A stretch of DNA of 64,000 nt from Leptolyngbyaceae cyanobacterium (GTDB lineage Bacteria > Cyanobacteriota > Cyanobacteriia > Phormidesmidales > Phormidesmidaceae). Position numbers and translations under genes: made by a program. The stretch is taken from the NCBI GenBank assembly GCA_965263355.1, contig CBDHHL010000056.1, positions 1,056,001 through 1,120,000 on the forward strand, written 5' to 3'. Positions within the stretch are counted from its first letter, which is position 1. Every line of letters starts with the position of its first letter. Shown here piece after piece: positions 10,714 through 34,750 of this stretch. Under the pieces are notes generated by a model. The model was not told the origin of the DNA. It was given only the letters and a program-made list of their open reading frames with translations, and did not search any database.

Positions 10714-10802
10714 CCAGACATTTTCGATAACAGGAATTAACGTAACCGATCCAGACTCCAGACATTTCCTGTAACGACAACGATGGGAAAACTATCTATC
10801 GT
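10714..10802 (+). promoter_or_regulatory. Two copies of the island box plus putative -10 (TATCGT 10797-10802)
   Basis: ccagacattttcgataac (10714) and ccagacatttcctgtaacgacaa (10758); TANNNT lies 17 bp after ACGACA. Confidence 0.7.
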
Positions 10803-10956
10803 TATAGTTAGTTGCTTGAGAGAATTGTGTTCTAGAGCAATTGATTGTAACCATCTCATGGTTTAGCTTACTTATGAATCGCGGTTCTGCTTAATGGGCC
10901 AATGCCGCGTTTTTTCTCTTTTGTGATCTGACAAAATTATTTTTGGGAGCCAAACA

Positions 10957-11172
10957 ATGCTATTAACCGAGCAACTTTATGGCGCAGTCGCCCCACAGGA
11001 ACAAGACCATGCGCTTACGCGTATCACCCCTCACGACTCATTAGTTACTATCTTCAACTTAATTGTTAGCTGCAATGCTACGCTAATAATTTTTATTTTG
11101 GAAGTTAGTCAAAATGTCGTTGTTTTAACCTTTAGACATTATGGGAAAATCACGTCTCTATCGACTCTTTAA
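10957..11172 (+). CDS. Hypothetical small protein (71 aa) or decayed gene
   Basis: GGGAG RBS before the ATG, downstream of a box-associated promoter; no recognisable domain. Confidence 0.35.
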   Translation: MLLTEQLYGAVAPQEQDHALTRITPHDSLVTIFNLIVSCNATLIIFILEVSQNVVVLTFRHYGKITSLSTL

Positions 11173-11243
11173 GGCTAGAAAGAAAATACCAACCCAAAGT
11201 AGGCTGTTCTCCCAAGGAAAATATTTGGGTATTCCTGACTATA

Positions 11244-11333
11244 CCAGACATTTTCTGTAACAGCGATTGGTTTTTACTGATGCACCCTTCAGACATTTTC
11301 TGTAATGACAATATTTAAAGGTGTACCTATGAT
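11244..11333 (+). promoter_or_regulatory. Two copies of the island box plus putative -10 (TATGAT 11328-11333)
   Basis: ccagacattttctgtaacagcg (11244) and tcagacattttctgtaatgacaa (11289); 17-bp spacer to TATGAT. Confidence 0.72.
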
Positions 11334-11481
11334 TTGAATATAAACCTTGTCCACGTCCAGAACTGTAGTTTTGCCGTAGAAGAAATTCCAGGTTTCAACT
11401 TGGACGTGGTTTAGGTGACCGCAATGGTTGTTGTTTAAGTCAATCATTTAATTAACCAATCAATTTGTTAGGATATTCGTT

Positions 11482-11718
11482 ATGTACAATTCTACATTTC
11501 ATACAATTTTGATTGCAGTAAGTATCACCACTGCCTTCACACTATTTCTCAATGGAGTTGAGGATACGTTTACTACGAGAAAACCCCTTCCAGTAAATGG
11601 TCCATCTTTGAGGGAACAAAACTATAAAGGAAATGATGTGAATAGACCCTTCCCTTATGGTTATGGATCTAAAGGAAGGTTAGACAATGGCACTTCCCTT
11701 GAGGGCCAAGTTCTTTAA
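11482..11718 (+). CDS. Small putative secreted or membrane-anchored peptide (78 aa)
   Basis: AGGA RBS, hydrophobic N-terminus, Pro/Gly-rich polar C-terminus, downstream of a box promoter. Confidence 0.55.
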   Translation: MYNSTFHTILIAVSITTAFTLFLNGVEDTFTTRKPLPVNGPSLREQNYKGNDVNRPFPYGYGSKGRLDNGTSLEGQVL

Positions 11719-11752
11719 GAAAAGAGTATTGTGGTCAAAATGGTCTGTTAGA

Positions 11753-14700
11753 TTACCCCTGATGTGAACAAATTGCAGGTGTGGGTATTGACTCGGCAAG
11801 TCTCTCTGCTATAGCAAAAAGTTCTATATGGCCGTTAACGTTTCTTGCCCAATCGTTAGCTTCTGTTAATGCTGGCTCAGGGGTTATGGGCTGTGTGACT
11901 GGCTCAACAGCTGTGGTGGTTTCTGTACTTGGCGTATAGAGGTCTTCCCAGAGATCTTGGGATGAGATCGCATCCTCTGGCCCTAACGGTATTCCCCCGC
12001 GCCCGGTCGCTACAAAGCTAGAAATACCCTGACTGGGGTTACAACGCTGGCTAATGCGCGGTACACCCGTTTCATTCGGCAAGTCAGTCGTGTCCCTTGT
12101 GGGATCTAAGGCAAGGGTATCAATATCTACTTCGCCTGCAGCCCCAAAGGCAGAACTGGCAGTAATGTCATTGCGAACAGGTATCTCATCGGTCTGAAAC
12201 TCGATACCGTAGATTCCTGATGCTGTTATCTGTACATTTCCCCCCTGCCCCAAAAATGCATTGGCAGTAATGTTGCTATCTTCGTCTGGGACAGCAACCA
12301 AAAAATCTGTTGTGATATTGACATTCCCTCCGTCGCCTTCAGCTTCGGCAAGACCTGCTGTTGCCGAAAGATTACTGCCATTGCGTAACAACACCACATC
12401 GTCAATGACTAGGGTAATGATGCCACCCTGGTTGCTGGCTGTTTCAGTTGAGATCAGTGCATTATTCTTGAGGGTTAAAAAGTCTGCATTGAGTTCAATA
12501 TCGCCACCTCTGCCGGTCCCCTGACTATCCAGTGCAATCTTTGCCCCATCCTGGATAGTCACTGTGTTAGAGTCCACAAAGATGCTGCCACTATTGCCAG
12601 TAGATACTACCGTAGTATTCGCAAACAAACCACTATTCTCACCAGCAAGAATAATACTATTTGTATCCAGTACTCTGATATCACCTGCATTACCTGCACC
12701 TGATGTTGTGACAGTAATCTGTCCACCTTCTAAGATTTCTAAATTATTGGTGTTGAGCAAAATCTCACCAGCTATCCCATCGTTAGCGATACTGGCATTG
12801 AGCGCCCCCCCTTGACTGACCCTGAGTGTCTCTGCTGATATCTGGATATCGCTAGCGTTACCCCTCGCTCCAGGCTGTATGTCTGCGAGAATACCACTTT
12901 CCTCTACCACAGGGTTCACACCATCCACGATAATATCTTCTTGAACCGTGACTATAATCGGTGCGGCATTACCAATGCTATCAGTAATAACAGAGGTGGC
13001 TAATTTACCACCATTGGTCAGTGAAAGGCTATTGGCCGTAAGCATGATTGTGCCTCCATTACCAAAAGCTGGTACGGTTTGGTCTTTGTCCAAACGTTCA
13101 CCAACACTGCTAAAGAAGCCACTAGTTGCTGACACTAATGCGTCTGGCGTAGAGCCCGTAGTTAGACCGTCAACATTGGCTCCATCGATGCTAACGGCAC
13201 CTTGAACATTAACCGTAATATCGCCAGCGTCCCCTATGGAAAAGGTATTGGCTGTAAACTGCCCCCCATTTTTTAAGGTGAGAGTACCTGCCGTGACTTG
13301 AATATCACCCCCTTCACCAATACCGTCTGTATCAAGGTCGGTAAAAATGCCTGTAACAGCCCCGCTAGAATCAGAGCCATCTAAGAAAAATGCCTCTTCT
13401 ATCTCAATCGTGACATTGCCAGCGTTACCTAAACCTCGCGTACCGGTTTGAATTCTTCCTCCCCGCGTAATCGCTAGGGAATTAGCAGAAACAAACACAT
13501 CACCAGAAAAACCAACTGCGCCTGGCCGAGTTGTGGCAAATAGACCGCTGGAATATCCATCTACATCCACCCCATCGATAACAATATCATCACGCACCTT
13601 AAGCTGGATACCTTCTGCCTGCCCAACGGCCCCACCACGGACACTTGAAATCAACTCGGCACCATCTAACAACGCAAGAGAACCAGCTTGAATCGTAATT
13701 CCCCCAGCGTCAACATCATCTAGAGAACTGACGTTATTAAAAATGGTACTTGACTCAGTGAGCGTCACCTTATTCTGGACTTCCACGAAGGTCTCACCAG
13801 CATTGCCAGCACCAAATGTGTCAATGATAATAAAAGCGATATTTTGAGCCGTGAAGTTATTGGCTTCTATGATTGTGTTGCCACCATTACCGGTTGCTCC
13901 CGTTGCTACGACATTGTAGATTGTCACAAAAGGTCCTTCAATAGTAAGGTCGTCAGTTGCCCTCAGGATAATATCGCCACCCTGACTATCAACGGTACCT
14001 AAACCAGGGGCAATGCCAGCATAGAGTTCACTCCCACCTAAGATGCCAATATTTTGCCCTGTAATAGTAATGCTACCACGATCGCCTGCCGTTACATCCA
14101 ATATGGCTTCATTCTGAACAATTACATTGTTGCGGTTTAGGTCTGGGGAAGCATTGAGTGACAACGGTGCATCGGGTACTCCAGAATCTGGAATATTGTT
14201 ACTTAGACTATTACCATCTCTAATGATCTCGACTTGTCCTGGCCCTGCAATTCCGAGCAGATCAATATGACCGCCCAAGGCGTTGAGCCAACCACCGTCG
14301 ATCAGTACTTCTCCTCCAGCTAACAATAGACTCTCACCATCGGGTACTCTTAGCCCAAAGGTTGGTTCTCCAGATGCATTTATACCCGCAGGCGCGACAG
14401 ATTGGTTAATGATTGGTCCAGGGGCTGTATTATTAAAGAATAACGCTGAGGGAGCAACTGTTAGTAGAGCGGGTACCTGTGGGTTGGATGCGCTGAAAAG
14501 ACCCTGGTCTTCAAATTGAATGCCGTCTGCAGTTGTAGCTAGAAAAGAACCGCCAATATCTAGTTGGGAATCAGGACCAAACAGAATACCGTTGGGATTA
14601 ATCAAAAAGAAATCAGCTTCGCCAAGTACGCCAAGCGTGCCCAGAATGTTGGATGAGCCATTGCCAGTAACGCGAGTCAAAATTGTCTCGATGCCTGCTG

Positions 14701-14977
14701 GATTGGCAAAGTAAACCTCTTGCCCAGTTTCAATAGTAAAGTCTCGAAAACTGTGAAAGAGATTTGTATTATTGACAACCCCACCTTCAATGCGATCGCG
14801 AGTAGCACTTTCTGGTACCACTACCGAGGGGTTTGTCCCTAATGAGCTATCTGGAGTTACTTGGGCACTGGCTAGTTGGGGGAAGGGAGGTATAAGTATG
14901 GTTGAGATCGTAACCACACGTAATGCCAGTAGGGCATTTTTAGTTATAAACCATTTAGGTAGATGGAAGGCGTTCAT
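11753..14977 (-). CDS. Filamentous haemagglutinin/TPS (TpsA-like) exoprotein
   Basis: Signal peptide (ASA-QVTPD), NLFHSF and FLINPNGILFG TPS-domain motifs, GxGGxI beta-helix repeats, C-terminal C...FVATGRGGIP typical of cyanobacterial members. Confidence 0.9.
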   Translation of the reverse strand: MNAFHLPKWFITKNALLALRVVTISTILIPPFPQLASAQVTPDSSLGTNPSVVVPESATRDRIEGGVVNNTNLFHSFRDFTIETGQEVYFANPAGIETILTRVTGNGSSNILGTLGVLGEADFFLINPNGILFGPDSQLDIGGSFLATTADGIQFEDQGLFSASNPQVPALLTVAPSALFFNNTAPGPIINQSVAPAGINASGEPTFGLRVPDGESLLLAGGEVLIDGGWLNALGGHIDLLGIAGPGQVEIIRDGNSLSNNIPDSGVPDAPLSLNASPDLNRNNVIVQNEAILDVTAGDRGSITITGQNIGILGGSELYAGIAPGLGTVDSQGGDIILRATDDLTIEGPFVTIYNVVATGATGNGGNTIIEANNFTAQNIAFIIIDTFGAGNAGETFVEVQNKVTLTESSTIFNNVSSLDDVDAGGITIQAGSLALLDGAELISSVRGGAVGQAEGIQLKVRDDIVIDGVDVDGYSSGLFATTRPGAVGFSGDVFVSANSLAITRGGRIQTGTRGLGNAGNVTIEIEEAFFLDGSDSSGAVTGIFTDLDTDGIGEGGDIQVTAGTLTLKNGGQFTANTFSIGDAGDITVNVQGAVSIDGANVDGLTTGSTPDALVSATSGFFSSVGERLDKDQTVPAFGNGGTIMLTANSLSLTNGGKLATSVITDSIGNAAPIIVTVQEDIIVDGVNPVVEESGILADIQPGARGNASDIQISAETLRVSQGGALNASIANDGIAGEILLNTNNLEILEGGQITVTTSGAGNAGDIRVLDTNSIILAGENSGLFANTTVVSTGNSGSIFVDSNTVTIQDGAKIALDSQGTGRGGDIELNADFLTLKNNALISTETASNQGGIITLVIDDVVLLRNGSNLSATAGLAEAEGDGGNVNITTDFLVAVPDEDSNITANAFLGQGGNVQITASGIYGIEFQTDEIPVRNDITASSAFGAAGEVDIDTLALDPTRDTTDLPNETGVPRISQRCNPSQGISSFVATGRGGIPLGPEDAISSQDLWEDLYTPSTETTTAVEPVTQPITPEPALTEANDWARNVNGHIELFAIAERLAESIPTPAICSHQG

Positions 14978-15099: not shown

Positions 15100-16242
15100 C
15101 TAAACGTTTTCTAGATTGCTATACTGTTCTACTGCTGCTGTTGGAGGGAGACTGGCATGGGCAAAAAGTGAAAGAGAACTTGCGTTCGTCTGGCATAGGC
15201 AGGTGTGGGGGTGGTCGGGACCAACGGTAGCGTTAAGAATTGAGAGAGCACGCTCAAATAGTTTAGCCGCTTCGGCTAGGTGATTCGTCTGTTGTAGTAG
15301 AGATGCTAGATTATTTAAACTGATGGCTACTTCAGGATGGTTTAAACCTAATAGGGTTTCTTTAATGGTTAATGTCTGACGATAAGCCTGTTCGGATGGC
15401 TGAAGTTGTCCTTTGGCTTGTAATGATGCGGCCAGGTTGTTGAGGTTAAGGGCGACGTCGTAATGGGTAGGGCCATATTGTTGTTTGAAAAATGCGATCG
15501 CATTCTCAAAATAAACGATGGCCTCATCCCATTGTCCCAGACCGTGTAAAATTGCCCCCAGGGCAGCCCCGTCGGCAATTGTTTGGGCATGGTCTAAACC
15601 GAATAAGTCTAGATGAAGCTGATAGGATTTGCGAGCATAGGGTTCGGCTTCAGCATAGTGACGCCGGGCATGGTTTAGGCCAGCCAGGTTGTGATAAAGG
15701 GTGGCTACTTCCCGATGGTGTTCGCCATAGTGTTGAATCAGATCAGCTAAGGCAGTTTGATAAAGGTTTTCGGCAGTATCAAAACGCCCCCAATATTTAT
15801 ACACAATAGCCAAGTTGTTTATCAGGCCAATCCAAACGGGTTGATGGCGTAGGTCATGATTTTCAGCTAAGGCAATTGCCTGTTGAAATGTCTGTTTAGC
15901 CGGTAAATACTTACCTTGAATACGATATAGATTGCCCTGTTGCGGTAGAATTTTTAACTCCAGAGGAAGAAAGATTTTGGCAGGGTAGATGAGTTTGATG
16001 TTGTTATACAAAGCTGATTGGGCTGATTGCAGCTGAGTTTGGGCCTCATCGTAGCGGGCTTGGGCCTCCAGGCTAGTAATTAGGTGACTTTGCAATTTGA
16101 CTTGAATGACTAAGCCTGCAGGTGGGGGTGGAAGGAGGGGGAGAAGTTGGAGACAGCGTGTTATGGCTTTAGTGTGGTGATGATTTGCCTGATGGTAGAC
16201 GATGTCTTGCAGCTGGTGTTGCCAATTGATTAAGTTGCCCAT
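15100..16242 (-). CDS. Tetratricopeptide repeat protein (kinesin-light-chain-like 42-aa TPRs)
   Basis: Repeats such as HPEVAISLNNLASLL, HREVATLYHNLAGL and HYDVALNLNNLAASL. Confidence 0.85.
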   Translation of the reverse strand: MGNLINWQHQLQDIVYHQANHHHTKAITRCLQLLPLLPPPPAGLVIQVKLQSHLITSLEAQARYDEAQTQLQSAQSALYNNIKLIYPAKIFLPLELKILPQQGNLYRIQGKYLPAKQTFQQAIALAENHDLRHQPVWIGLINNLAIVYKYWGRFDTAENLYQTALADLIQHYGEHHREVATLYHNLAGLNHARRHYAEAEPYARKSYQLHLDLFGLDHAQTIADGAALGAILHGLGQWDEAIVYFENAIAFFKQQYGPTHYDVALNLNNLAASLQAKGQLQPSEQAYRQTLTIKETLLGLNHPEVAISLNNLASLLQQTNHLAEAAKLFERALSILNATVGPDHPHTCLCQTNASSLSLFAHASLPPTAAVEQYSNLENV

Positions 16243-16354: not shown

Positions 16355-17077
16355 CTATGAAAGTTGTGCTGTTTCAGAAGTCACAAGTATTTCATTATGA
16401 TTCAGAAACATCTGTTCAACCGTAGGTGCATCATCAGGTATACCTTCATGATTACCACCGATGATCGTAGCTAACTCTTGCACACTTAACGGAACAACTA
16501 CTTTATGTCGATTAGTTAAAACAGGCTTCTCATGGGAAACAATTGTTTCATTATGGTTAAACTGAATAGCACTACCACTAATATCGTCCTCAGGTTTGCC
16601 GTCGCCATTACCACCTGCGATCTCCACTAAATCTTCTATACTTAGCAGAACAGCTTTGAGTGGGTGAGCTTGAGCTACATTTTTACGAGAAACTATAGTT
16701 TCATTGTGATTGGCAGAAAGAGCGTCATCCTCATACTCATTTTCGGGTTTGCCTGTACCATTGCCACCTGCGATCATGGCTAAATCAACTAAATTTAGCA
16801 GAACAATTGTGGGTGACTTAGGTTGAGTAGTATTTGGAGAGGAAACAATTATCTCATTATGGTTAAGCGTAATGCCATTATCCTCATACTCATCTTCGGG
16901 TTTGCCTGCGCCATTGCTACCTGCGATCATGGCTAAATCATCCATGCTAAATTCAACAAGATTAGGCTGTTCAACAATATGTGTCAGTAAAATACCCTGA
17001 TCGATTAGATGATTATTGGCTTGGAGCTTTTGACGTTGATTTGGTTTCATTAGTGAATCGGTGATTTGGTTTGTCAT
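16355..17077 (-). CDS. Repetitive multi-cassette peptide precursor: 4 x (double-glycine leader + 21-aa segment ending NHNE)
   Basis: GS/GG at aa 53-54, 104-105, 155-156 and 207-208, each preceded by (L/F)(S/N)xx(D/E)LxxIx; NHNE ends exactly 21 aa after each GG/GS. Confidence 0.75.
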   Translation of the reverse strand: MTNQITDSLMKPNQRQKLQANNHLIDQGILLTHIVEQPNLVEFSMDDLAMIAGSNGAGKPEDEYEDNGITLNHNEIIVSSPNTTQPKSPTIVLLNLVDLAMIAGGNGTGKPENEYEDDALSANHNETIVSRKNVAQAHPLKAVLLSIEDLVEIAGGNGDGKPEDDISGSAIQFNHNETIVSHEKPVLTNRHKVVVPLSVQELATIIGGNHEGIPDDAPTVEQMFLNHNEILVTSETAQLS

Positions 17078-17183
17078 AGTTGTAAATTCGTAAGAGGTCT
17101 GTTTCTAGTTGTCTGACATGAGATGATACATAGGTATCACCAATACTCACCCCATGTCTCTACCTTATAAAGTGTTGTTTGAG

Positions 17184-17243
17184 CAGTCATTACAGGAAAT
17201 GTCTGGTATGTTGAGGCAAGCGGTGTGTCAGCAAATGTCAGGA
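17184..17243 (-). promoter_or_regulatory. Island box upstream of the multi-cassette precursor
   Basis: Sense strand ccagacatttcctgtaatgactg, with TAAGGT 17 bp after ATGACT; auxiliary tcctgacatttgctgaca further upstream. Confidence 0.75.
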
Positions 17244-17390
17244 TTTAAGTCAGTTGATGGGTCCAATTAACTATCCGATATGAACCCCCTTCTCACAATT
17301 CTGGACGTTCGGCGAATGCGGCTCGACTAAGTACTCGCCGAAGTCTCGGTCGAGCTGGGGAAACTGGACTTAAAGCCCCCAGAACTGTAT

Positions 17391-20300: not shown

Positions 20301-20735
20301 TTGTCGAGCGACGTGGATAGCCGGTAGCCAAATGTCTTCAAAGGGAATAGGATGGTCTGGATCGGTGGGCCAGGGAAAGATGGGGGCTGATACGTCAGTG
20401 GAGGTGGTTTGGACGATGTGTCGTAGGGTATCTGTCCAGGGGGGTAGAGAGTGCTCTGGAGCAAGCTGAACGTCGCCTAGATAGGGACGTACAGTATCCA
20501 GGGTAAGTCCATCCCACTGGAGGCGTTTGTCTAAAATGTCTCGTTGATTTTCATGGGCTACGGTTTGACACCAGCGATCGCACCGTCGATCAATCTCTGT
20601 TTGGCTGTTTTGATCGGGGTTGGGGATATAGCGATCGCTATCCAGTCGTTCCCAAAGAAAGCTGGCATCGGCAACAATCCGAGCCAGCTCAGCATCGGTT
20701 AAGTGAGCCTTTTCCATGATCAATGTATGAGACAT
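17391..20735 (-). CDS. lanM: Class II lanthipeptide synthetase LanM (ProcM-like, CCG motif)
   Basis: Dehydratase motifs SDPH, YKPK, TDCHYENL, IDMET; cyclase motifs GFSHGAAG, WCHGAAG and HLCCGNLG. Confidence 0.95.
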   Translation of the reverse strand: MSHTLIMEKAHLTDAELARIVADASFLWERLDSDRYIPNPDQNSQTEIDRRCDRWCQTVAHENQRDILDKRLQWDGLTLDTVRPYLGDVQLAPEHSLPPWTDTLRHIVQTTSTDVSAPIFPWPTDPDHPIPFEDIWLPAIHVARQRLLTRLGASQLNPAALPISVLSDQAYIPLERALLQRLSGLSNQTLNFEFAKDRSFGQNLLNLLGIEDPESGISNSQYQQFVQELLQDGLIHFFQNYPVLGRLVAVAVDLWVDATTEFIQRLTQDYGEIQQQFLSENSTSTPLGKVTTIQTSLSDPHNQGRTVFLLAFDSGLKLVYKPKDLGLEVAWNQFLTWCNHHSQLLDFKVLQVLNREDYGWVEFVEHLPCTDADAVDRFYQRAGMLSCLIYVLRGTDCHYENLIASGEHLVLIDMETLLHHDANLIENSPEMDVLDTESAQLFQNSVLRTGLLPRWDFSADQRIANDISGLGHTEQRQHIRKLLRWQAINTDNMHLRSEMVTLPIEKNVPHLEDMPLSSNEYQAKIVDGFEQMYRFLRSQTSQLLATNGPLANLQHQRVRFILRATRIYFSLLRQACTPGYLKHGVDYSIELDHLSRAFVLANEKPDAWPLLQAERQAMEQLDIPFFTANTSDAVLPLNQGRTIANYFKQSSYQAVTEQIQTLNEASLAQQVAIIQGAFYAKVAQPMTIPGSHDNQSDITSDGPVLDHQQLIQAARDIATDLEARALQDDNGSLNWIGMGFVAQAERFQQQMLNDSLYDGRCGVALFFAALYQVTEDSHYRDLALRVIHPLNERLQVMDILSLQRYVRLMGLGGAGGVGSLIYSFIKISRFLEDETLLAYAQTLATGITPELIAADQSLDIISGAAGCILGLLSLYQVTDDAMVLQQAIACGNHLLSCQVTSVTDPKAWKTVAEKPLTGFSHGAAGIAYALLRLYAVTDDNRYREAALEGIAYERSVFSQSQANWPDLRDDNPTFLVQWCHGAAGIGLGRIGSMETIASAELEQDLHIALQTTEKQDIKAIDHLCCGNLGVAEVLLAGAQRYDHSIAPENHRWRQTALQIATAVVARAQQAGAYQLFANLPNSVFNPGFFQGTAGIGYQLLRLAHNELPSILLWK

Positions 20736-20931
20736 TTTAGCTGTCCTCTAAATGTACTTAAGTGGGATAAAAATTGAAGGATAGTAGTCAAGTATTAGAT
20801 GTCAGTGAGGTTCTGGATTCCGACACTTGATCCCCGACACCACACCTAGCCAGGGCTCCTGGCTTATGTTGATGCCTAAATTACTTTCTATGACAAACTT
20901 AGTTATTATTTTACTGAGAGGGGAGCACTGA

Positions 20932-20988
20932 CTGTCGTTACAGAAAATGTCTGGAAAACCAATAAAAATTGTCAGATAATGTCAGAAT
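20932..20988 (-). promoter_or_regulatory. Island box upstream of lanM
   Basis: Sense strand ccagacattttctgtaacgacag; auxiliary ttctgacattatctgaca; TAAAAT 19 bp downstream. Confidence 0.75.
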
Positions 20989-23700: not shown

Positions 23701-23774
23701 CGATTGATACCTGAGAGATTTACCCTAATCAGGGGACTTCATCGGCCCCCACAATATGTTGATCTATCTTGGAT

Positions 23775-25565: not shown

Positions 25566-25639
25566 AGTCGGTAATTTAGACAATTTTAGCTTCAATTTTA
25601 GAGTCGATTGTTAATGGTTTACTATTGTGTGTCTCGGAG

Positions 25640-25901: not shown

Positions 25902-28103
25902 CTAAACGGCCTGAATCAATTGAGTGTAGATCCCATTGCGTTGCCATAAGGTGTCATGGGTGCCCTGCTCGGCTACTTTGCCATTGTCTAAAACAACAAT
26001 CTGATCACAATCTCGAATGGTACTCAGACGATGGGCCACTATCACATGGGTGCAGCCACGCTGTTGTAGATTATGGCTAATGCGCTGTTCAGTTTCAGCA
26101 TCCAGGGCACTGGTCGCTTCATCCATTACCAAAATTGAAGGATTATGAACCAATGCACGGGCAATTTCTAGGCGTTGGCGTTGTCCGCCGCTGAGATTGT
26201 GTCCCCCTTCCATTAACTCACCCTGAAATCCGCCAGGAATAGTGTGTACTGCTTCAGTGATCAAAGCATCGTCACAGGCTTGGATAAGTTGTGGTTCTGC
26301 CACGCGATGATCCCATAGGGTGAGGTTGTCACGAATGGTACCGCCAAATAAAAAGATATCCTGTTCCACCAGTGCCAGAGATCTGGCCAGAATCGGTCGA
26401 GGGATAGCCGTTATGGGCACACCATCCAGTAAAATTTCGCCGGACCAGGGCTGATAGAGACCACAGATAAGTTTAGCCAGCGTCGATTTACCCGAGCCGC
26501 TGCCCCCTACCAGAGCTAAACGTTCTCCAGGTTGCAGGGTGAGATTAAAATTTTCTAGTAAAGGTGGTGCAACCCGAGAATATCCAAAGGTAACCTGACG
26601 CAGTTCAAGATGACCGCTCAGCTGTTGCGTCTCTGACCATTGCTGAAGAGCTTTTGGTGAGGACTCGATCAATGGTGACTGTAGTTTGCGATCGCTAACA
26701 TCAACCATTGGATCTAACGGATGTTGCAAAACATCTTCTAAAGACGTTAGGTTACCATCTAGTTCCTGTAGACGACTGCCAAAATTAACTAAATCGGTAA
26801 CTGGCATTTGAAACTGTTGCATCAAATGTTGAAACGCCACCACCATACCAATGGTCATTTCACCATTCATAACCCGAAGTCCCCCTATTAGCAAGATTAA
26901 CAATGTTGTTAAAGCCGTTAAAAAAATAGGTAAAATTCCGAGGTTTTGGTTGGAGAGTTCAAGGTCCTGCTGGGTGTTAACTACCTTGGCATAATACCCA
27001 GCCCAGCGAGTAAAAAAGTCGGACTCCATGGCAGAGGCCTTAATGGTTTCTATATTCTTGAGTCCAGTAATGGCCACACTCTGGGCTTTGCCTCTATCCA
27101 ACTGTAACTTGAGGCTAGCATCAATGCGGTGGCGAGAAATCCATTGGAGTACCAACACATTGAGAACGGAAAATACAATCCCAATAATCGTTAGTAGACC
27201 ATCGTAAGCAAACATAATTCCGGCATAGAAAATCAGCATAACACTGCTGATAATGGTGGTGGCCAGTTGTCCAGAGAGGACATCGGCAACTCGATTGTTA
27301 ATCTGCAGACGATTGACCACTTCTCCGGCTAAGCGATGGGCATAAAAGTCCACAGGCAACCGTAGGCTTTGCCAGAGAAAATGACTGGACATGGTGGTGG
27401 CCAGTTTAATCTTGAGTTGTCGCAAAAAGCGTAGTTGTAGCAGCGACAGGATGATTTGGATTGTCAGCGTAAGGAGCATGGCCAGAATTAATGGCCGGAA
27501 CCACTCAGTACGATGGTCAATTAAAATCTGATCGACAAAAATTTGGCTAAAAACCGGTAAAATAATATTGGGAACCGTCAGGAGAAAGCCAGCAATAACA
27601 CAGTAGAGAATCGTCCCTCTAGAGGCCCGCAGACGATCGTTTAAGGCTTTTACTAAATTGGGTTTATGTCCCCCTGGCTGAAAATTGGGTCCTGGGTTTA
27701 AGGTGAGAAGCACTCCAGTAAAGGCTGCGTCAAACTCCTTGAAAGAAACACTGCGGGGACCTGTCGCTGGGTCGTTAATAAATACGCGATCGCGACCAAT
27801 CCCCTCAATTACAACAAAGTGGCCAAAATTCCAGAATACAATGTAGGGGGGCTTAAACTGACTGAGTTGTTCCAGTTCTGCTTTGTAACCATTGGCCTCC
27901 AGACCATAGCGCTGAGCTGCTTTAATAATGTTGCTAGCTTTACTCCCGTCCCGAGAAACCCCGCACTCCACCCGCAACTCGGTCAGGGGAACAATCCGTT
28001 TATAGTAGGCCAAAATAATGCCCAGGGTAGCTGCTCCACATTCCACCATTTCCATTTGAAGTAGGGTGGGAGTAGGTACTCGTTTTGGTTGTAAAAAAAG
28101 CAC
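25902..28103 (-). CDS. NHLP-family peptidase-containing ABC transporter (C39 peptidase/permease/ATPase)
   Basis: QMEMVECGAA (Cys), HFVV (His), NDP; GGSGSGKS, LSGGQRQR, DEATSALD. GTG start at 28103 with GGAG RBS (ORF extends to 28211). Confidence 0.93.
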   Translation of the reverse strand: MLFLQPKRVPTPTLLQMEMVECGAATLGIILAYYKRIVPLTELRVECGVSRDGSKASNIIKAAQRYGLEANGYKAELEQLSQFKPPYIVFWNFGHFVVIEGIGRDRVFINDPATGPRSVSFKEFDAAFTGVLLTLNPGPNFQPGGHKPNLVKALNDRLRASRGTILYCVIAGFLLTVPNIILPVFSQIFVDQILIDHRTEWFRPLILAMLLTLTIQIILSLLQLRFLRQLKIKLATTMSSHFLWQSLRLPVDFYAHRLAGEVVNRLQINNRVADVLSGQLATTIISSVMLIFYAGIMFAYDGLLTIIGIVFSVLNVLVLQWISRHRIDASLKLQLDRGKAQSVAITGLKNIETIKASAMESDFFTRWAGYYAKVVNTQQDLELSNQNLGILPIFLTALTTLLILLIGGLRVMNGEMTIGMVVAFQHLMQQFQMPVTDLVNFGSRLQELDGNLTSLEDVLQHPLDPMVDVSDRKLQSPLIESSPKALQQWSETQQLSGHLELRQVTFGYSRVAPPLLENFNLTLQPGERLALVGGSGSGKSTLAKLICGLYQPWSGEILLDGVPITAIPRPILARSLALVEQDIFLFGGTIRDNLTLWDHRVAEPQLIQACDDALITEAVHTIPGGFQGELMEGGHNLSGGQRQRLEIARALVHNPSILVMDEATSALDAETEQRISHNLQQRGCTHVIVAHRLSTIRDCDQIVVLDNGKVAEQGTHDTLWQRNGIYTQLIQAV

Positions 28104-28201
28104 AATGCTTGGTCTCCAAGAGAGTTTGCAAAAGATAGGTGTCAGAAAATGTCTAATACCAAACCCGAGTTCATTAACCCCGATAAAAAATACATCAGTC
28201 C

Positions 28202-28228
28202 GTAGGGGCAATCCCTTGTGGTTGCCCT
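28202..28228 (+). repeat. GTAG-type REP-like short palindrome
   Basis: gtaggggcaatcccttgtggttgccct; near-identical copy at 41057-41083 (-), related copy at 35765-35790 (-). Confidence 0.65.
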
Positions 28229-28256: not shown

Positions 28257-29702
28257 TTATCCCCTAACCCATTCTCGTAAAATAGGCACTAAAAACGTAA
28301 TTGGAGCCCGTTCTTCCACTGTTACTCGCGCTGTCAATGTCGTGCCTAAGGTCAGCGACTCTTCAGGTCCCTGAGACGATGACCAGGCATACCCACTGGA
28401 TGTCTCAGCATCCGTTTGCAGTTCAACCGTCACCGCCAGATGCCCGGTTCCCCCCGTCATCAGGGTATCCACAATCTCTGGATTACCCACTGCCGCAATT
28501 GCCCCTTCACGGGACACTGGCAACGACGATACCCCCGTTACCGTTCCTCGAATACTGCCAAACCGTTCACGCTTTACCGTATCTGGCGCAATCATAATCT
28601 CCATCCCTGGTTGTACCCGTTTTCCCTGGGCGACAGTAAAGTAGATGACCCCGGTGTCTGGCTGTGTCTGCCCAGGTGCCATCGCTTGTAGACGCCCCAA
28701 TGACATGCCTGGAGCAACTACCTGCCCCACCGTTGCCGTCGTTTCCACAATACAGCCCGACTGAAGACTTCTAATTTCACTATTTTCAATAATCTGCCGT
28801 TTTAGCTGAGAAATTTGCTGCTCTAAAGCTTGTTTTTCTTGCTCATACCCTTGTAGAGCGTTTAAATTCTCCTGTTCTAGTTGCTTTCCTCTGGTTTCTA
28901 AAGCTTGCAAATTAGCCTGCACTTGGGAAATCTGATTCAGATTATTTAAATGCTGTTGCTGAGCTTCCACCATTTGTAAGTTTAATTGCTGTAGCTGGGT
29001 ACCCAGGTCTCCCAGACGGTGCAGATTTTGACGATGTTCTTGTTCTGCCTGTAATACCATATCTGGAGCAATGGCCCCTGCTTTAACCAGGGACTGACGA
29101 CTATGGAGGCGCTGTTCCAAAACAGGTGTCAGTTCTTGGGTATCTTTGAGTTGTTGTTGTAAATTAGTACGCTGTTGCTCTAGCATTAAGGTATTTTGAC
29201 GATTAAGCGCTGGCGTTAAGGATTCTGCATTACTTAGCTGTTGTTCCATCCCCAGACGCTGGGTGGCCATTTCTGCCTGGGCCAGTCCTGTTCGTTGCGT
29301 TCGAATTAACTCGGCCTGATAAAACTGTTGTTGCAGCTGAGCGTGCTTACTCTGTTGTTGCTGTAGCTGCTGATTTAGATCCGTTGGATTAATAGTGGCC
29401 AGCAGCTCTCCGTTTTTCACGCATTGCCCTGCAGTCATCGGTAAAGTCTCTAATTGCCCCGAAATAGGTGATTGGAGGGGGATAACCTGATGTGGGTCTA
29501 GCAAAATACCCTGGCCCGTGACCGTCATGGGCATTTTACCCAACAGACTCCAAGCGGCCCCAGCCCCCAAGAGTAGCGTCATCATGCCCAAGGGTAGCCA
29601 GTCTTTAGGCTTGACCAGTCGGATCGCCTGATCCAACTTTTCAGGTGATTGGAGTCGCTCCAGGGATTGTTTACGAAACAGGTGTGTGTTTTGTTCAAGC
29701 AT
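28257..29702 (-). CDS. NHLP bacteriocin system secretion protein (HlyD family)
   Basis: LFRKQSLERLQSPEKLDQ N-terminus, TM helix, long coiled coil, WSSSQGP, PITFLVP. Confidence 0.92.
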   Translation of the reverse strand: MLEQNTHLFRKQSLERLQSPEKLDQAIRLVKPKDWLPLGMMTLLLGAGAAWSLLGKMPMTVTGQGILLDPHQVIPLQSPISGQLETLPMTAGQCVKNGELLATINPTDLNQQLQQQQSKHAQLQQQFYQAELIRTQRTGLAQAEMATQRLGMEQQLSNAESLTPALNRQNTLMLEQQRTNLQQQLKDTQELTPVLEQRLHSRQSLVKAGAIAPDMVLQAEQEHRQNLHRLGDLGTQLQQLNLQMVEAQQQHLNNLNQISQVQANLQALETRGKQLEQENLNALQGYEQEKQALEQQISQLKRQIIENSEIRSLQSGCIVETTATVGQVVAPGMSLGRLQAMAPGQTQPDTGVIYFTVAQGKRVQPGMEIMIAPDTVKRERFGSIRGTVTGVSSLPVSREGAIAAVGNPEIVDTLMTGGTGHLAVTVELQTDAETSSGYAWSSSQGPEESLTLGTTLTARVTVEERAPITFLVPILREWVRG

Positions 29703-29731
29703 GCTTCCGCCTTTTGCCTTCCTACGTTGTT

Positions 29732-32050
29732 TTAGGTCAATTGTCGATTCATAAGCGTTTTAAACAATCCCGGCTGTTGGGATAATGCTTCAAAGCTGCC
29801 CTGTTGCACGATCTGACCTTGGTCTAATACGTAAATGCGATCGGCATGGCGGATGGTACTGAGACGATGTGCGATCGCAATTCGAGTGATTTTCAACCGT
29901 TCTAAGTTTTGACGCACCGTTGCCTGGGTACAATTGTCCAGCGCGCTGGTCGCTTCATCTAATAACAAAATCTTGGGTTTTAAGATCAGAGCACGGGCAA
30001 GCAGTAGCCGTTGCCGCTGCCCCCCTGAGAGATTTGCCCCCCCTTCAGATATATGGGTATGTAGCCCCATGGGCATGGCCTGAATGTCGTCTGCTAACCC
30101 TGCCATTTGGGCAGCTTGCCAGACATCTGACCGAGTGGTCAGAGACCCCGCTGCAATGTTGTCAAAGATAGAGCCACTATTAATATGACCATGTTGCAAC
30201 ACCACTCCCAACTGTCGCCGTACGGCTGCAACATCCAACCCAGATAGAGCCTGCTGATCGTAAAATACACCACCAGACTCAGGCCATTCGAACCCGAGGA
30301 TCAATCGTAGAAGAGTCGATTTGCCACTGCCAGAGGGGCCTACCAACGCGATAAATTCTCCAGGCTTGGCCTCTAACGTAACCCGATCTAACGTCAGGGG
30401 ACCATCCGCACAATAGCGAAAGGAGAGTCGGTCTAGTAATAAATGGCCAGTCAGGTCACCTGGATGGGCTTTTGTATTGTCTACCTCGGGTTGGGCCTGC
30501 ATAATGGGCTGTGTGCGCTCCCAGAAAACACCCGCTTCCCAGAGTTGCACGATGGCCTCACTTAGGTTTGTGGTGCCCCCAATAAAGATACCAAACGCGC
30601 TATTAAATGCCAGGAAAACCCCTGTAGACATAGGCTTTGCTGTAGCAATGTCTGTTTGTTGCAGACCAACCACGCCAATAAAGAAGAGTATCAAGCTCAG
30701 GGTTGGCAAGGCCTGATTAAATACCCGTAAATAATCAGCTAAACATTGACTGTCGAGGGTTATTTTTAACTGTTGGCGATAATAGCTGGCCCAGTAGGCA
30801 AAGGCTCGATGTTCGGCCCCGGCAACGCGAATTTTAGAGATGCCTTCCAGGATTTGGACCATGGTGCCAAACAGATTTCCCTGAACTAATAGTAAAGCCC
30901 GAAATTTTTGATTCATGGGCAATCGGATCAGGTTTGTAATCAAAAAAGAGACTAAGGCCAACACTATCGCTAATCGGGCTAATCGGGCACTGTAAACGAA
31001 TAAAATGCCACCATTGAGTAGGGCAAAGAGACTGGTTAGGAGGGTAGGCAGAGTTGCCCCTTCTAGGCGATAGCGGATTTGAGTAATGGCTAAAACCCGA
31101 TTCTTAAGATCACCACTGGTATAGTTACGAAAAAAGGATGGCTGTAATTTTAGTAGACGATCCCAAATAGCTGATTGGGTTACTACATCTAAATTGGTCT
31201 GCAGTCGCAGTAGGGCAACCCGTTGCACCCGTTGGAAGACAACAACGCCGAGACTGGCTAGGAGAAGGCCAATGCCAAGTTGGAATAATAAGGTGCGATC
31301 GCTATTGGGAATGGCCTGATCGATTAATATGCCGGTAGCTACCGGAGTCAACACCCCCAACAATGCAATGAGAATACCGCTGCCTGCAATTGTGAGTAGT
31401 GAAGATTGTTGTCCCTGCAGGGCAAATTGCAATACCTCCCAACCGCGCATCAGCTGATCCGGAAAGGACCGATAAAAGACATAGGCGATGGGATCAATCT
31501 GTTGGGCTTGGCTGGCGGTCAGAGGGATGTGCCGTTGCAGCCTTGGAGCAAATACCTGATAACGGCCAGGACGAATAGGTAACAAGGCCACTGGTTGCTG
31601 GTTGATGCTCCCCAGCAATGGGCCTAAATCGGCCTGCCACCAGCCAGGCTCTAACTGTACCTGACGAGTGTGGATCCGAGAGGCGGTTGCGATCGCTCGG
31701 ATCGCATCATTGATGGTTGGTTTGCCTAAGTTTATATCACCTGCAGCTTCATGGTGCTGTAGCGGTGATGCTAGCCAGTCCTGGGGGGGATGAATGTCGA
31801 TGCCCAATGCCTGGCCCACAGCCCCTGCCGCTGCTAGCCAGGGATTTTCTGTACCAGATAGCGAAAACCTGCCCCCTACCTCTGGCTGGGTTAAAACCGA
31901 AGCAAGATCATTGAGGGCCTGGGTTTGGATAGCAAGGTCATAAAGGTCAGCGGGAGTGGTGCAATCGTATTGCGAGTCTACAGAAGGCTGTGGTTTAGGA
32001 GATTGCCCTGAAATAGATAATTGGCACGATTCGAGTATCGGCATACTCAT
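29732..32050 (-). CDS. NHLP bacteriocin export ABC transporter permease/ATPase (no peptidase domain)
   Basis: WWQADLGPLL, GPSGSGKS, LSGGQRQR, DEATSALD; in an operon with HlyD and the C39 transporter. Confidence 0.92.
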   Translation of the reverse strand: MSMPILESCQLSISGQSPKPQPSVDSQYDCTTPADLYDLAIQTQALNDLASVLTQPEVGGRFSLSGTENPWLAAAGAVGQALGIDIHPPQDWLASPLQHHEAAGDINLGKPTINDAIRAIATASRIHTRQVQLEPGWWQADLGPLLGSINQQPVALLPIRPGRYQVFAPRLQRHIPLTASQAQQIDPIAYVFYRSFPDQLMRGWEVLQFALQGQQSSLLTIAGSGILIALLGVLTPVATGILIDQAIPNSDRTLLFQLGIGLLLASLGVVVFQRVQRVALLRLQTNLDVVTQSAIWDRLLKLQPSFFRNYTSGDLKNRVLAITQIRYRLEGATLPTLLTSLFALLNGGILFVYSARLARLAIVLALVSFLITNLIRLPMNQKFRALLLVQGNLFGTMVQILEGISKIRVAGAEHRAFAYWASYYRQQLKITLDSQCLADYLRVFNQALPTLSLILFFIGVVGLQQTDIATAKPMSTGVFLAFNSAFGIFIGGTTNLSEAIVQLWEAGVFWERTQPIMQAQPEVDNTKAHPGDLTGHLLLDRLSFRYCADGPLTLDRVTLEAKPGEFIALVGPSGSGKSTLLRLILGFEWPESGGVFYDQQALSGLDVAAVRRQLGVVLQHGHINSGSIFDNIAAGSLTTRSDVWQAAQMAGLADDIQAMPMGLHTHISEGGANLSGGQRQRLLLARALILKPKILLLDEATSALDNCTQATVRQNLERLKITRIAIAHRLSTIRHADRIYVLDQGQIVQQGSFEALSQQPGLFKTLMNRQLT

Positions 32051-32102
32051 CCTTCCTTATCTATGGAACGAGACACCCCTACGATAGGCATTAAAACTGG
32101 CA

Positions 32103-32148
32103 TTGTCGTTACAGAAAAAGTCTGGTAGTTTGCAACAAGATGTCAGGA
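32103..32148 (-). promoter_or_regulatory. Island box upstream of the NHLP transporter operon
   Basis: Sense strand ccagactttttctgtaacgacaa; TATCGT 17 bp after ACGACA; auxiliary tcctgacatc. Confidence 0.75.
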
Positions 32149-32152
32149 AAAA

Positions 32153-32914
32153 TCAATTAAATGATGCTCCATAGACGCGTGATGGTTGCTTTTGTGCATA
32201 GTTCAGACAGTCGTTGAGCAAGTGGGTAAAAATTTCAAATATTTGTTCAACCCTGTTAAGGGCATGCTTCAGATCAGTTGGAGATAGCTGCGTATGATTG
32301 ATCAGATGCATAGACTCATTTGAATAAAGACTATGCTCAGAGTCAGCCGCAAAATGACTGCTAGCAAAATACTGATACTGTTTTCCTGTTATCGCTTGTA
32401 GCTCTTGGCCAACTTGGGCGGCGGCGGCAAAAAAGACATTGCTTGTTGCTTCTAGAGCCTCAATTACCACCAGTTTCTGGATAGGAGTAGCCTGACAGGA
32501 ATATCGATATAGCTCATACACAACCCAACGAGCCACCTGGGTATTGTCTCCCCACATAAATGTCAAAGCATCACTCAAACGCAAGGTTTGATCCATGCCA
32601 AATCTTTTCAAGTCAGTGAGAAACCATACCCAATGATGGTCATCCTCATAGGTATGGTGATTGATCAGTTGCTGAATTGGATCATGGGTGGGCTCATCTC
32701 GGAAAATAGATGTGTTTAATTCTGCAAACCCCATCACTAGAGGTGCCAGACAGGGCGCAAATGAAAGCCGTTGGGCTGGATCGATTTGCTTATTCAAAAA
32801 GAACTGGAAAAAAGGATGTTGGGCAAATTCTTGCTTGTGATGATCTATGGAAAGCAATACTTGTCGTATGCTGGTCTCTGAAGTCTGGGGGAAATCAATA
32901 CAATTAATAGTCAT
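32153..32914 (-). CDS. Putative heme-oxygenase-like diiron oxidase fold protein
   Basis: HPFF, HTYEDDHHW, EALE and YF..H...D..H arrangement of His/carboxylate residues in a helical protein. Confidence 0.55.
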   Translation of the reverse strand: MTINCIDFPQTSETSIRQVLLSIDHHKQEFAQHPFFQFFLNKQIDPAQRLSFAPCLAPLVMGFAELNTSIFRDEPTHDPIQQLINHHTYEDDHHWVWFLTDLKRFGMDQTLRLSDALTFMWGDNTQVARWVVYELYRYSCQATPIQKLVVIEALEATSNVFFAAAAQVGQELQAITGKQYQYFASSHFAADSEHSLYSNESMHLINHTQLSPTDLKHALNRVEQIFEIFTHLLNDCLNYAQKQPSRVYGASFN

Positions 32915-32992
32915 GTTAGAAGACTTGTAGATTGGAGCTGCAGGATAAAGATATTTTCAGGAAAGAAACGACTCGTTGTCCAAGCCCTCAAA

Positions 32993-34231
32993 TCAAACAG
33001 TAGTGGTATAACTCACCAAGAATGTCACCTCAGCGCGTTGGCTATCGCCATTGCCCATTGTGGTAATAAAGACCCCATCGCCTTTAGGCGTAATCCCACC
33101 ACCAAAGACTTTGCCACTGCGGGTATCGTAGGTTAGATGTAGGTCTCGCTGATTACGAATAGCGCTGATATCCGCATGTTCATCACTACTGCCACCGTCT
33201 GATTCAAAGATTTTGATCGAGATAGGAATTCGGTTTTTAGTCACACTGACCGGCTGCTTAAAGAAGAAATTAGGATAGGCATCATCATCATTGTTAATAC
33301 TCTTTGTACGGGGCTTTGCAACCCCATCAATGGCCACCCTGGCATAGAAATCCGCTTCGCCCCGACCCCAACCTTCAAAATCATCCAGGGCTTTGATCCG
33401 CCGAATCCTAACTGTCAATAGCGCATCCCTGACCGGTGTACCCATTAGCCGTAGATGATAGCGAGTACGCCCCGGCTTTGGTTTGCGTACCTGCACCAGA
33501 TAATGACCAGGAGTAAGTAGGTCACTCTCAACAGTTTCAGACGTTGCGCGCAGGTGTCTAGAATCAATGAGTTTGGTACCCTGTTGGTCATACAGGCTCA
33601 GTTGTACCCTGGCATTAAATTGACTAGCGGTTGCCGAAAATTTGCTGGGGGCGACCAGCTTAAAGCGATAATAGTCACTTCTGTCGCGACTACCGTCAAT
33701 TTCTCCAATCACATCACGCACACCATTGAGGTTGACCAAACCATCTCGATCTAAGCGATGTGCATTAGCTGGAAAATCGTTGTTTTCCCGTTCTGGTTCT
33801 AATACATTAGGTTGCACCGCCAGTTCCATCCGATAGGGGGTATCACCCGGCCCCTGACTTAAAACCTGTAGGTAGTAGGTGCTGTTGCCCAGTCCATGAA
33901 TATCAATGACTTGGTTACCATTGTTATCTAGGCTCGACTGAGTAATCACATCACCTGGGTATACATAGCGATCATTTTGGACATCTCTAATTAGCCGGAC
34001 GGTGGCTGTCGTGCCAACATCGGGAAGTTTACAGGTCAGACTGCCTGTGGCCATCGAAAATTGATAGTTTCTTACTTTACCTGCAGGCAATGTTTCTGCA
34101 AAGATAATGGAATCATTTACCTGACCAACAACGGTAATGGGAGAGAGAATTGATGCCGTTGGAAAGGTACTCTGAGTATCAATTGAGTTGGATACAATTG
34201 TAGTGTTAGGCGTTAGGGGTGTAGAAGCCAT
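32993..34231 (-). CDS. Protein with pre-peptidase C-terminal (PPC)-like domains and a C2-like C-terminal domain
   Basis: EPERENND, DRSDYYRF, GHYLVQV (PPC-like); GEADFYARV...IFESDGG (C2-like). Confidence 0.6.
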   Translation of the reverse strand: MASTPLTPNTTIVSNSIDTQSTFPTASILSPITVVGQVNDSIIFAETLPAGKVRNYQFSMATGSLTCKLPDVGTTATVRLIRDVQNDRYVYPGDVITQSSLDNNGNQVIDIHGLGNSTYYLQVLSQGPGDTPYRMELAVQPNVLEPERENNDFPANAHRLDRDGLVNLNGVRDVIGEIDGSRDRSDYYRFKLVAPSKFSATASQFNARVQLSLYDQQGTKLIDSRHLRATSETVESDLLTPGHYLVQVRKPKPGRTRYHLRLMGTPVRDALLTVRIRRIKALDDFEGWGRGEADFYARVAIDGVAKPRTKSINNDDDAYPNFFFKQPVSVTKNRIPISIKIFESDGGSSDEHADISAIRNQRDLHLTYDTRSGKVFGGGITPKGDGVFITTMGNGDSQRAEVTFLVSYTTTV

Positions 34232-34347
34232 GATAGTAGGAGATAGAATTTACTTGCAGTTTATTGATTTGGCATTTAAGACCAAATCTCTGTTACCAGT
34301 TGTGCGCTCAGACAGGGGTACATTGGCTGAGATAACCTGTCGTTTTA

Positions 34348-34515
34348 CTAACTGAATGTAGTAGGCAACGCTGCTATTAGCCACTTGCAAACCAGACGAT
34401 CGTCTTCAAGTATCCACGTTGCGATAAGCTGAGATTTAGGTTTAACAACAGTAGTCAACTGTTGAGTATGAGACTTATTAGTTTTAGTAGCTAATGTTTT
34501 AATAGTTGCAGTCAT
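34348..34515 (-). CDS. Small hypothetical protein (55 aa), LIATW...LVCKW motif
   Basis: ATG at 34515 with GGAG RBS; downstream of a box promoter. Confidence 0.6.
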   Translation of the reverse strand: MTATIKTLATKTNKSHTQQLTTVVKPKSQLIATWILEDDRLVCKWLIAALPTTFS

Positions 34516-34682
34516 GATACTTTTCTCCAAGTAATATGATGATTGTGATAACCCGCGCAAAACAAATGGATAATTGATTGATTGACCGAAAACGCCTGAC
34601 TTATGAGTGACTTGTTTTGAGATCAAACGTTTTTGAACTGCGTTTGAATCTATATTTACAAGAGTAAATAGAACGCTTAAAT

Positions 34683-34750
34683 TCGTCGTTACAGAAAATG
34701 TCTGGTAAGTTCTAGATCCTGACATTTAACGACATTTCCTGTAATGCCGG
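34683..34750. promoter_or_regulatory. Back-to-back island boxes forming a divergent promoter region
   Basis: Minus-strand box at 34683-34705 (ccagacattttctgtaacgacga); plus-strand tcctgacatttaacgacatttcctgtaatgccgg at 34717-34750. Confidence 0.75.

Follow-up and report, generated by a model that had tools for sequence, protein, structure and literature searches.

A putative promoter type made of a conserved 22-bp box and a TANNNT element in a cyanobacterial lanthipeptide island, and its candidate HTH-NTPase regulator

Regulators of the MalT/LAL type, the large ATP-binding LuxR-type regulators of Streptomyces gene clusters, carry a C-terminal LuxR helix-turn-helix (HTH) behind a STAND nucleoside triphosphatase (NTPase) with a sensor/TPR arm. 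The present analysis concerns a stretch of 64,000 nucleotides from a Leptolyngbyaceae cyanobacterium (GenBank assembly GCA_965263355.1, contig CBDHHL010000056.1, positions 1,056,001 to 1,120,000 of the forward strand; hereafter the window), which contains an island of lanthipeptide, exoprotein and export genes with repeated copies of a 22-bp box, CCAGACATTTYCTGTAAYGACA. At 35845..37248 (+) the window encodes a protein of 467 amino acids (aa), in which an N-terminal HTH domain (PF26355, HTH_VMAP-M9) is joined to an AAA_35 P-loop NTPase. Box and a TANNNT element 17 bp downstream of it appear to form a conserved promoter type, which is probably bound and activated by the LuxR-like HTH of this protein.

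The locus resembles the MalT/LAL systems in combining a P-loop NTPase and a LuxR-like HTH in one polypeptide encoded in or beside a biosynthetic cluster, and in having several asymmetric sites of which the proximal one overlaps the -35 element. It differs from them in the N-terminal position of the HTH, which belongs to PF26355 and not to GerE, in an AAA_35 NTPase that has no TPR/sensor arm, in a separate co-encoded AAA_35-CHASE2 membrane protein, and in a DNA word unrelated to the MalT box. Heptamer direct repeats about one helical turn apart that reach into the -35 of cluster promoters are likewise a feature of the SARP/AfsR regulators, and the coupling of a DNA-binding domain to an NB-ARC ATPase, as in AfsR, recurs in the NB-ARC/WD40 relatives of the window protein; SARPs, however, are actinomycete proteins with an OmpR-type winged helix, whereas the nearest structural neighbours here are of the NarL/GerE type, and phylum and motif differ as well. 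As in NisRK/SpaRK, one regulator and a shared promoter box would serve the operons for lanthipeptide precursor, modification and export, but those are two-component systems, whereas neither a histidine kinase nor a response regulator was found in the island by Pfam; autoinduction by the peptide is only a possibility here. Class II promoters of NtcA (GTAN8TAC) also have an activator site that replaces or overlaps -35 and lies 17-22 bp upstream of TANNNT. Unlike in NtcA sites, the GTA at box positions 14-16 would need a TAC at positions 25-27, which are unconserved (at most 0.37 bits); the box is asymmetric, and its candidate binder is not a CRP-family protein. The box system belongs to none of the MalT/LAL, SARP/AfsR and NisRK groups. 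In a literature search of main texts no description of the box, of the regulator or of a DNA target for the PF26355 domain was found. In passages of Kaur et al. 2020 (PMC7159879), VMAP-M regions are described as variable modules with a probable sensing role, and HTH domains are named only generally; a passage of Hu et al. 2017 (PMC5587647) only notes a WD40/CHASE2/DUF928 neighbourhood in Nostoc punctiforme.

Occurrence and geometry of the box

The window was compared with CCAGACATTTYCTGTAAYGACA, allowing up to three mismatches, which gave eight matches (10758, 11244 and 11289 on the forward strand; 17185, 20933, 21966, 32104 and 34684 on the reverse strand), and dinucleotide-preserving shuffles of the window gave matches in 0 of 100 cases. 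A weight matrix run over the entire 64 kb with a cut-off of 8 bits returned exactly 10 sites, namely the eight strong boxes with 28-40 bits and two weak copies at 10714 (+, 8.6 bits) and 34728 (+, 13.0 bits), and no site beyond 10.7-34.8 kb. As the matrix had been built from box copies that include those of the window, the strong scores are partly circular, and the informative outcome of the scan is the absence of further sites. All copies lie outside long open reading frames (ORFs), and each faces an ORF on the same strand 54-506 nt downstream. A preliminary description of this DNA had listed the same ten sites, with minus-strand coordinates that are one base off, and its statements that they are intergenic, read towards the downstream gene and are absent outside 10.7-34.8 kb agree with the scan; eight of the ten would serve promoters, and those at 10714 and 11244, which have neither the GACA end nor a -10 element at 17 bp, appear to be auxiliary copies. 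Because copies were selected by their match to the box, conservation of the box itself is circular, and the evidence independent of this selection consists of -10 spacing, half-sites, orientation and neighbouring gene.

Regarding the seven full boxes of the window, six are followed by TANNNT at 17 bp, with the hexamers TATCGT (10758 and 32104), TATGAT (11289), TAAGGT (17185), TAAAGT (21966) and TACTCT (34684). The seventh, at 20933, has TAAAAT at 19 bp, and the weak box at 34728, which is not among the seven, has TAGTCT at 18 bp. These spacings are those reported in the preliminary description, except that it gave 16 bp for the box at 34684. In a conservation set of 44 copies with up to four mismatches, taken from the window and from 16 stretches of five other genomes, box positions carried 1-2.1 bits and spacer positions 26-34 about 0-0.26 bits; on the 3' side of the box, T36 (75%), T40 and A41 (84% and 86%) and T45 (91%) were conserved, which corresponds to TANNNT exactly 17 bp away. 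A larger pool of 75 unique copies was collected with a loosened pattern from the window, from eight other cyanobacterial genomes (three of them with a variant box) and from metagenome contigs, leaving out copies less than 60 nt from the end of a locus. TANNNT stood at exactly 17 bp in 69 of the 75 and at any other spacing from 10 to 25 bp in at most two; grouping by spacer similarity gave 34 of 39 groups with TANNNT at 17 bp. It is strongly supported by these alignments that the box is half of a promoter, and that box, unconserved 17-bp spacer and TANNNT together make up a conserved promoter type.

The last six bases of the box, AYGACA, occupy the position of the -35 hexamer, with the final GACA inside it, and the -10 element is found at 17 ± 1 bp, as in a promoter of the primary sigma type with a protein site overlapping -35. 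Where the sigma-70 -35 hexamer has TT, the box has A without exception (position 17) followed by C in 75% of copies (position 18), a replacement that fits dependence on an activator. The bases ahead of GACA, CWGASATTTYCTGTAAY, are excessively long and conserved for a sigma contact. CTGAC words in the 44-copy set peak at -30/-29 (9 copies) and at -20/-19 (12 copies), counted from box position 1; their distances from the CAGAC of the box, 21-22 and 31-32 bp, place them on the same face of the helix, and the word occurs within 50 bp upstream in 22 of the 44 copies. Words of the form C[TA]GAC[AT] precede seven of the eight window promoters, which bears out the earlier remark that extra CTGACAT half-sites lie upstream of most copies; the eighth promoter, at 34684, carries them inverted. 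Inverted half-sites are the case at divergent promoter pairs, where they probably serve the opposite promoter.

Three upstream tandem copies (10714 and 11244 in the window and position 19009 of locus L158) keep CCAGACATTTTC..TAAC and are without the GACA end; the two of the window were inspected for a -10 element and have none. These copies, three cases only, hint that the protein site may comprise about the first 18 bp of the box and that GACA may be the part read by the polymerase. Pairwise alignment of orthologous promoters from the window and from Leptothoe spongobia shows that half-sites, box and -10 element are kept and that the flanks have decayed.

Distribution in other genomes and metagenomes

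Genome-wide scatter of the box was judged in relatives of the source organism. A 17-nt core scan of species-representative genomes gave at least 114 loci, mostly chance matches in unrelated phyla, and the full box was present in cyanobacterial ones only. Box, half-sites and -10 element together were found, among the matches listed, in Leptothoe spongobia TAU-MAC 1115, in the metagenome-assembled genomes Cyanobacteria bacterium P01_F01_bin.13 and J06635_1, in Leptolyngbya sp. JSC-1 and in Leptolyngbya cf. ectocarpi LEGE 11479; the copy from LEGE 11479 that the core scan returned has a 3' end, GTCG, that does not match the consensus, and the whole-genome scan of this strain gave a perfect copy. 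Whole-genome scans of these five genomes with up to three mismatches yielded 24, 5, 2, 2 and 4 copies, with 0 matches to the reversed pattern in each. The 24 copies of Leptothoe (5.2 Mb) are located on 4 contigs, 15 of them on a single 99-kb scaffold and all of these on one strand. On this 99-kb scaffold (G001:C7, about 56-64 kb, loci L147-L148) the orthologous island contains no fewer than eight genes for Nif11-leader precursors, with a separate box for several of them, compared with one such gene in the window.

An even sample of 401 cyanobacterial genomes, scanned with up to two mismatches, contained a match in only five (reversed controls 0), and three of these five carry a variant box in which position 6 is G, CCAGAGATTTTCTGTAAYGACA. 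The variant copies have TANNNT at 17 bp in 6 of 6 cases, and their upstream words are CTGAGAT- or CAGAGAT-like and thus track the box. A metagenome scan with CWGASATTTYCTGTAAYGACA gave 34 matches in 33 loci, with TANNNT at 17 bp in 32 of the 34; the remaining two, which also have no half-sites, are probably chance matches. The preliminary description had held that scatter over the genome regardless of gene orientation would mark a dispersed repeat; copies are instead clustered in islands, always oriented with a gene and absent from most cyanobacterial genomes, a pattern that marks the box as a lineage-restricted, island-associated promoter type and not as a dispersed repeat.

Across genomes, the ORFs downstream of boxes mostly encode exported products or export machinery, including many RTX-repeat proteins, Nif11 and other double-glycine (GG) leader peptides, ABC/HlyD exporters and CHAT proteases, and further an M23 peptidase, a peptidoglycan-binding protein, proteins with signal peptides and a peptide of about 50 aa with the ending W-x7-L-x-C-x-W. 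This bias towards exported products fits a switch for secreted products.

The candidate regulator and competing explanations

The regulator gene (35845..37248, +) probably has its true start near 35887. It overlaps by 49 nt with a gene (37200..39608, +) for an AAA_35 NTPase fused to a membrane CHASE2 domain; this protein has Walker A and B motifs and four predicted membrane helices, and its CHASE2 domain is periplasmic. A DUF928 protein with a signal peptide follows (39699..40517, +) and is syntenic with both AAA_35 genes in all relatives examined. NCBIfam gave no match for the regulator, its AAA_35-CHASE2 partner, the DUF928 protein or the AurF-like protein encoded upstream of them. In tblastn searches with the island proteins, the HTH-AAA_35, AAA_35-CHASE2 and DUF928 genes adjoined boxes in 5 of 5 other genomes, with two copies in Leptothoe; CHAT and TPS-domain matches were near boxes in 4 of the 5, and LanM genes were not shared in this way. 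The variant box of genome G016 lies about 200 bp from a divergent regulator orthologue (46-48% identity). Among the 33 metagenome loci, a regulator homologue was present within flanks of at most 3 kb in 12, and in 12 of 12 it was divergent and 81-473 nt from the box; several of these twelve are short contigs, and some are near-duplicates.

In five of these twelve loci (L172, L178, L186, L188 and L200) only about the first 100 residues match the regulator (to about residue 185 in L172, with 37% identity), and the remainder of the protein consists of an NB-ARC/NACHT NTPase, to which WD40 repeats are added in ORFs of sufficient length; the HTH has a GYSDSYLRRDVG-type helix. Since the same HTH sits beside boxes on either an AAA_35 or an NB-ARC/NACHT protein, the HTH tracks the box and not the type of ATPase. 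Its sequence hardly differs from one box-bearing genome to another (...GRHLSDVETEILKGSWQG.TYDQIA..SGYSDSYLRRDVG.K.W..L...). In precomputed annotation PF26355, named HTH_VMAP-M9 in Pfam 38.1, is assigned to the window protein and to 118 of 120 homologues among the matches listed, and the nearest Atlas clusters are 99-100% PF26355; the family has more than 3,700 homologues, spanning Nostoc, Calothrix, Coleofasciculus and others. An AlphaFold2 model (29-row alignment) has five helices in residues 1-92, with a predicted local distance difference test score of at least 85. In an exhaustive structural comparison of 48,161 chains, the best 11 were all DNA-binding domains of the NarL/RcsB/GerE/DosR/TraR type. 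A LuxR-like (NarL/GerE-type) fold of the modelled domain is likely but not certain.

On the favoured reading, the HTH-NTPase would bind as an oligomer to the phased heptamer array and to the 5' 18 bp of the box, and the assembled copies would recruit RNA polymerase to a -35 element that is poor at TT (AYGACA), in a class II-like layout. The eight window promoters would then co-induce the lanthipeptide precursor, lanM, the GG-motif repeat protein with the TPR and TPS genes, the C39/HlyD/ABC exporter operon with its two tailoring-type enzymes, and several small ORFs. The weaker box in front of the regulator's own operon would provide positive feedback. More speculatively, the AAA_35-CHASE2 membrane protein is a predicted sensor that might relay a signal from outside. 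DNA binding, activation, start sites and co-induction are what we infer from the arrangement of sites and genes; control of the whole island by a single regulator, as in the preliminary description, is a suggestion that can now be attached to a candidate protein.

Several observations weigh against this reading. The pool of 75 includes many orthologues and copies from related samples, and its counts therefore overstate independence. The 11 best structural matches have Z scores of 6.2-6.9 (root-mean-square deviation 2.1-3.0 Å, 63-68 residues aligned), and Z below 8 is middling by the scale of the tool. Foldseek against the PDB gave no match at E ≤ 0.001, the N-terminal 142 aa had no meaningful match in Pfam and none to GerE even at E 10, and a profile search of the PDB returned no HTH, with a weak DnaB-like P-loop match (E 0.12) as its only result. 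Lineages differ in having C or G at box position 6, and the half-sites mostly follow; a recognition helix co-varying with this position was considered and dropped, as locus L184 (C) and locus L190 (G) have identical helices and one lineage mixes both bases. The variant boxes of genomes G007 and G317 are on contigs other than those of the best regulator homologues, and adjacency was seen only in G016. The 3' part of the box, CTGTAAY, is constant while the half-sites vary, and may have another reader. Finally, the conserved GACA could confer basal activity, with the protein acting as a repressor.

Another reader would be a factor whose gene lies elsewhere, be it a dedicated sigma factor or a transcription factor without linkage to the island, with the HTH-NTPase gene as a mere member of the regulon; we regard this as a minor possibility. 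It would explain why CTGTAAYGACA-17-TANNNT stays constant while the 5' heptamer and the half-sites change, and why the variant boxes of G007 and G317 are not beside the best regulator homologue, and sigma region 4 domains are indeed next among the structural neighbours of the HTH (Z 5.4-5.9). It is opposed by the Pfam annotation of the window island, in which no sigma factor and no other recognisable DNA-binding protein was found, by the divergent HTH gene beside the box in every one of the metagenome loci that contain the HTH, whichever ATPase is fused to it, and by the -10 element, a TANNNT of the ordinary kind used by primary-type sigma factors. The HTH-NTPase as a repressor, whose operator overlaps -35 and whose promoters fire once the protein leaves, is unlikely. 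A site covering -35 is the classic position for a repressor, and with a conserved GACA at -35 and a -10 element at the optimal 17 bp the polymerase might work unaided; at the key TT of -35, however, the box has A in every copy and mostly C, and the extra half-sites are phased at about -60 to -75 from the presumed start and not over or after the core promoter, which would be the layout of an activator array. The idea that the box has no regulatory function and is a small dispersed repeat or a relic of a mobile element is suggested by its many and partly tandem copies (10714/10758 and 11244/11289) and is effectively refuted by the lack of conservation beyond box, half-sites and -10 element, by clustered copies whose orientation always follows the downstream gene and none of which is inside a long ORF, by the empty reversed-pattern control and by retention of the box at orthologous promoters across genera.

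NTPases with the HTH_VMAP-M9 domain have been discussed as components of 'conflict systems'. A wider and quite tentative extension, which we consider possible but rather doubtful, is that HTH_VMAP-M9, N-terminal on thousands of cyanobacterial AAA_35 and NB-ARC/WD40 NTPases, might bind DNA sequence-specifically and recognise CWGASAT heptamers in phase; such NTPases might be signal-gated transcription activators, and the trio of HTH-AAA_35, AAA_35-CHASE2 and DUF928 proteins might form a new route, other than two-component signalling, by which an outside cue (possibly the exported peptides) reaches regulons of secreted ribosomally synthesised and post-translationally modified peptides, RTX proteins and exporters through one promoter design. 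With the box, the large uncharacterised family of cyanobacterial HTH-NTPases gains a first candidate for its DNA target, from which a function can be tested, and a new cis-element is attached to it, in what would be a cluster-situated ATPase-HTH activator with a shared box. The sequence rule of box, 17 bp and TANNNT can be used to find co-regulated genes for secreted peptides and RTX proteins in genomes and metagenomes. With respect to natural products, a single candidate switch might turn on a silent lanthipeptide cluster in its native or in a heterologous host.

Promoters and genes of the island

The eight box promoters (P1 to P8) tile the whole island stretch. To its left, at 3-5301, genes for a ketosynthase, a Trp-halogenase-like protein and a DUF1702 protein have no box and may belong to another biosynthetic locus. 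The leftmost gene of the island itself encodes a CHAT/TPR protease (7810-10608, -). The auxiliary copy CCAGACATTTTCGATAACAGGA (10714..10735, +) precedes P1 (10758..10802, +), which consists of the box at 10758-10779, a 17-bp spacer and TATCGT at 10797-10802. There is no convincing ORF 3' of P1; about 105 nt at 10809-10917 (+) contain two predicted hairpins, the second followed by UUUUUU like an intrinsic terminator, and the region is possibly a box-dependent small RNA. A search of the 10-36 kb part of the window against Rfam, which includes this region, gave no family at the gathering score. The second auxiliary copy (11244..11265, +), which ends in AACAGCG, lies 45 bp ahead of P2 (11289..11333, +; box, 17 bp and TATGAT), whose target is a 78-aa ORF (11482-11718) with an N-terminus like a signal peptide.

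P3 (17162..17253, -) has half-sites at 17225-17253, its box at 17185-17206 and TAAGGT at 17162-17167. Its targets are a 240-aa protein with four repeats and GG motifs (16355-17077, -), a TPR protein (15100-16242, -) and a TPS-domain exoprotein (11753-14977, -). The 240-aa protein is built from four repeats of about 55 aa, each with a leader-like double-glycine motif 'DLAMIAGGNG.GKPE' and ending in 'NHNE(I/T)IVS', and contains no cysteine; it has a weak sub-threshold match to the lichenicidin A2 leader family and a homologue in Leptothoe. It looks like a multi-core precursor of exported peptides for the C39 exporter. A second pair of TPS-exoprotein and CHAT/TPR genes at 46514-53476 (+) has no box ahead of it and as a paralogous pair would fall outside the regulon. 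P4 (20908..20985, -), with half-sites at 20969-20985, box at 20933-20954 and TAAAAT at 20908-20913 at a distance of 19 bp, has lanM (17391-20735, -) as its target.

P5 (21943..22015, -; half-sites 21999-22015, box 21966-21987, TAAAGT 21943-21948) is directed towards the Nif11-leader lanthipeptide precursor (21179-21460, -). The leader of about 480 nt between P5 and this gene contains a perfect 16-bp hairpin at 21615-21650 (-), which could be an attenuator or a processing site. P6 (32081..32146, -; half-site 32140-32146, box 32104-32125, TATCGT 32081-32086) precedes genes for an ABC protein (29732-32050), an HlyD protein (28257-29702), a C39-peptidase ABC exporter (25902-28211), a thiamine pyrophosphate (TPP) enzyme (23775-25595) and an AMP-binding enzyme (22255-23700). 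The last two, of which the TPP enzyme has a MenD-like middle domain, end the exporter operon (22255-25595, -) and are unusual beside LanM.

P7 (34661..34705, -), with its box at 34684-34705 and TACTCT at 34661-34666, faces a 55-aa peptide ORF (34351-34515, -) and two genes at 32153-34231 (-) whose products are of unclear family, namely a PPC-like protein of 412 aa (32993-34231) and one of 253 aa and unknown family (32153-32914). The mechanically called 125-aa ORF at 34348-34725 is probably too long. The peptide ORF (LIATWILEDDRLVCKWLIAAL) is one of a group of ORFs of about 50 aa that end in W-x7-L-x-C-x-W and occur also in the loci L150, L184 and L190; the four loci represent different lineages, and in each of them this ORF comes first behind the box divergent from the regulator gene. 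The weak P8 (34719..34773, +), divergent from P7, is made up of a half-site at 34719-34725, a degenerate box at 34728-34749 and TAGTCT at 18 bp, and its targets are an AurF-like gene (34782-35753, +) and the regulator operon. Of the two oxidases named in the preliminary description, one corresponds to this AurF-like protein, a weak match below the Pfam cut-off, and the other to a protein that has no family hit. The sites orthologous to P8 in the loci L150, L159 and L153 have better boxes than that of the window.

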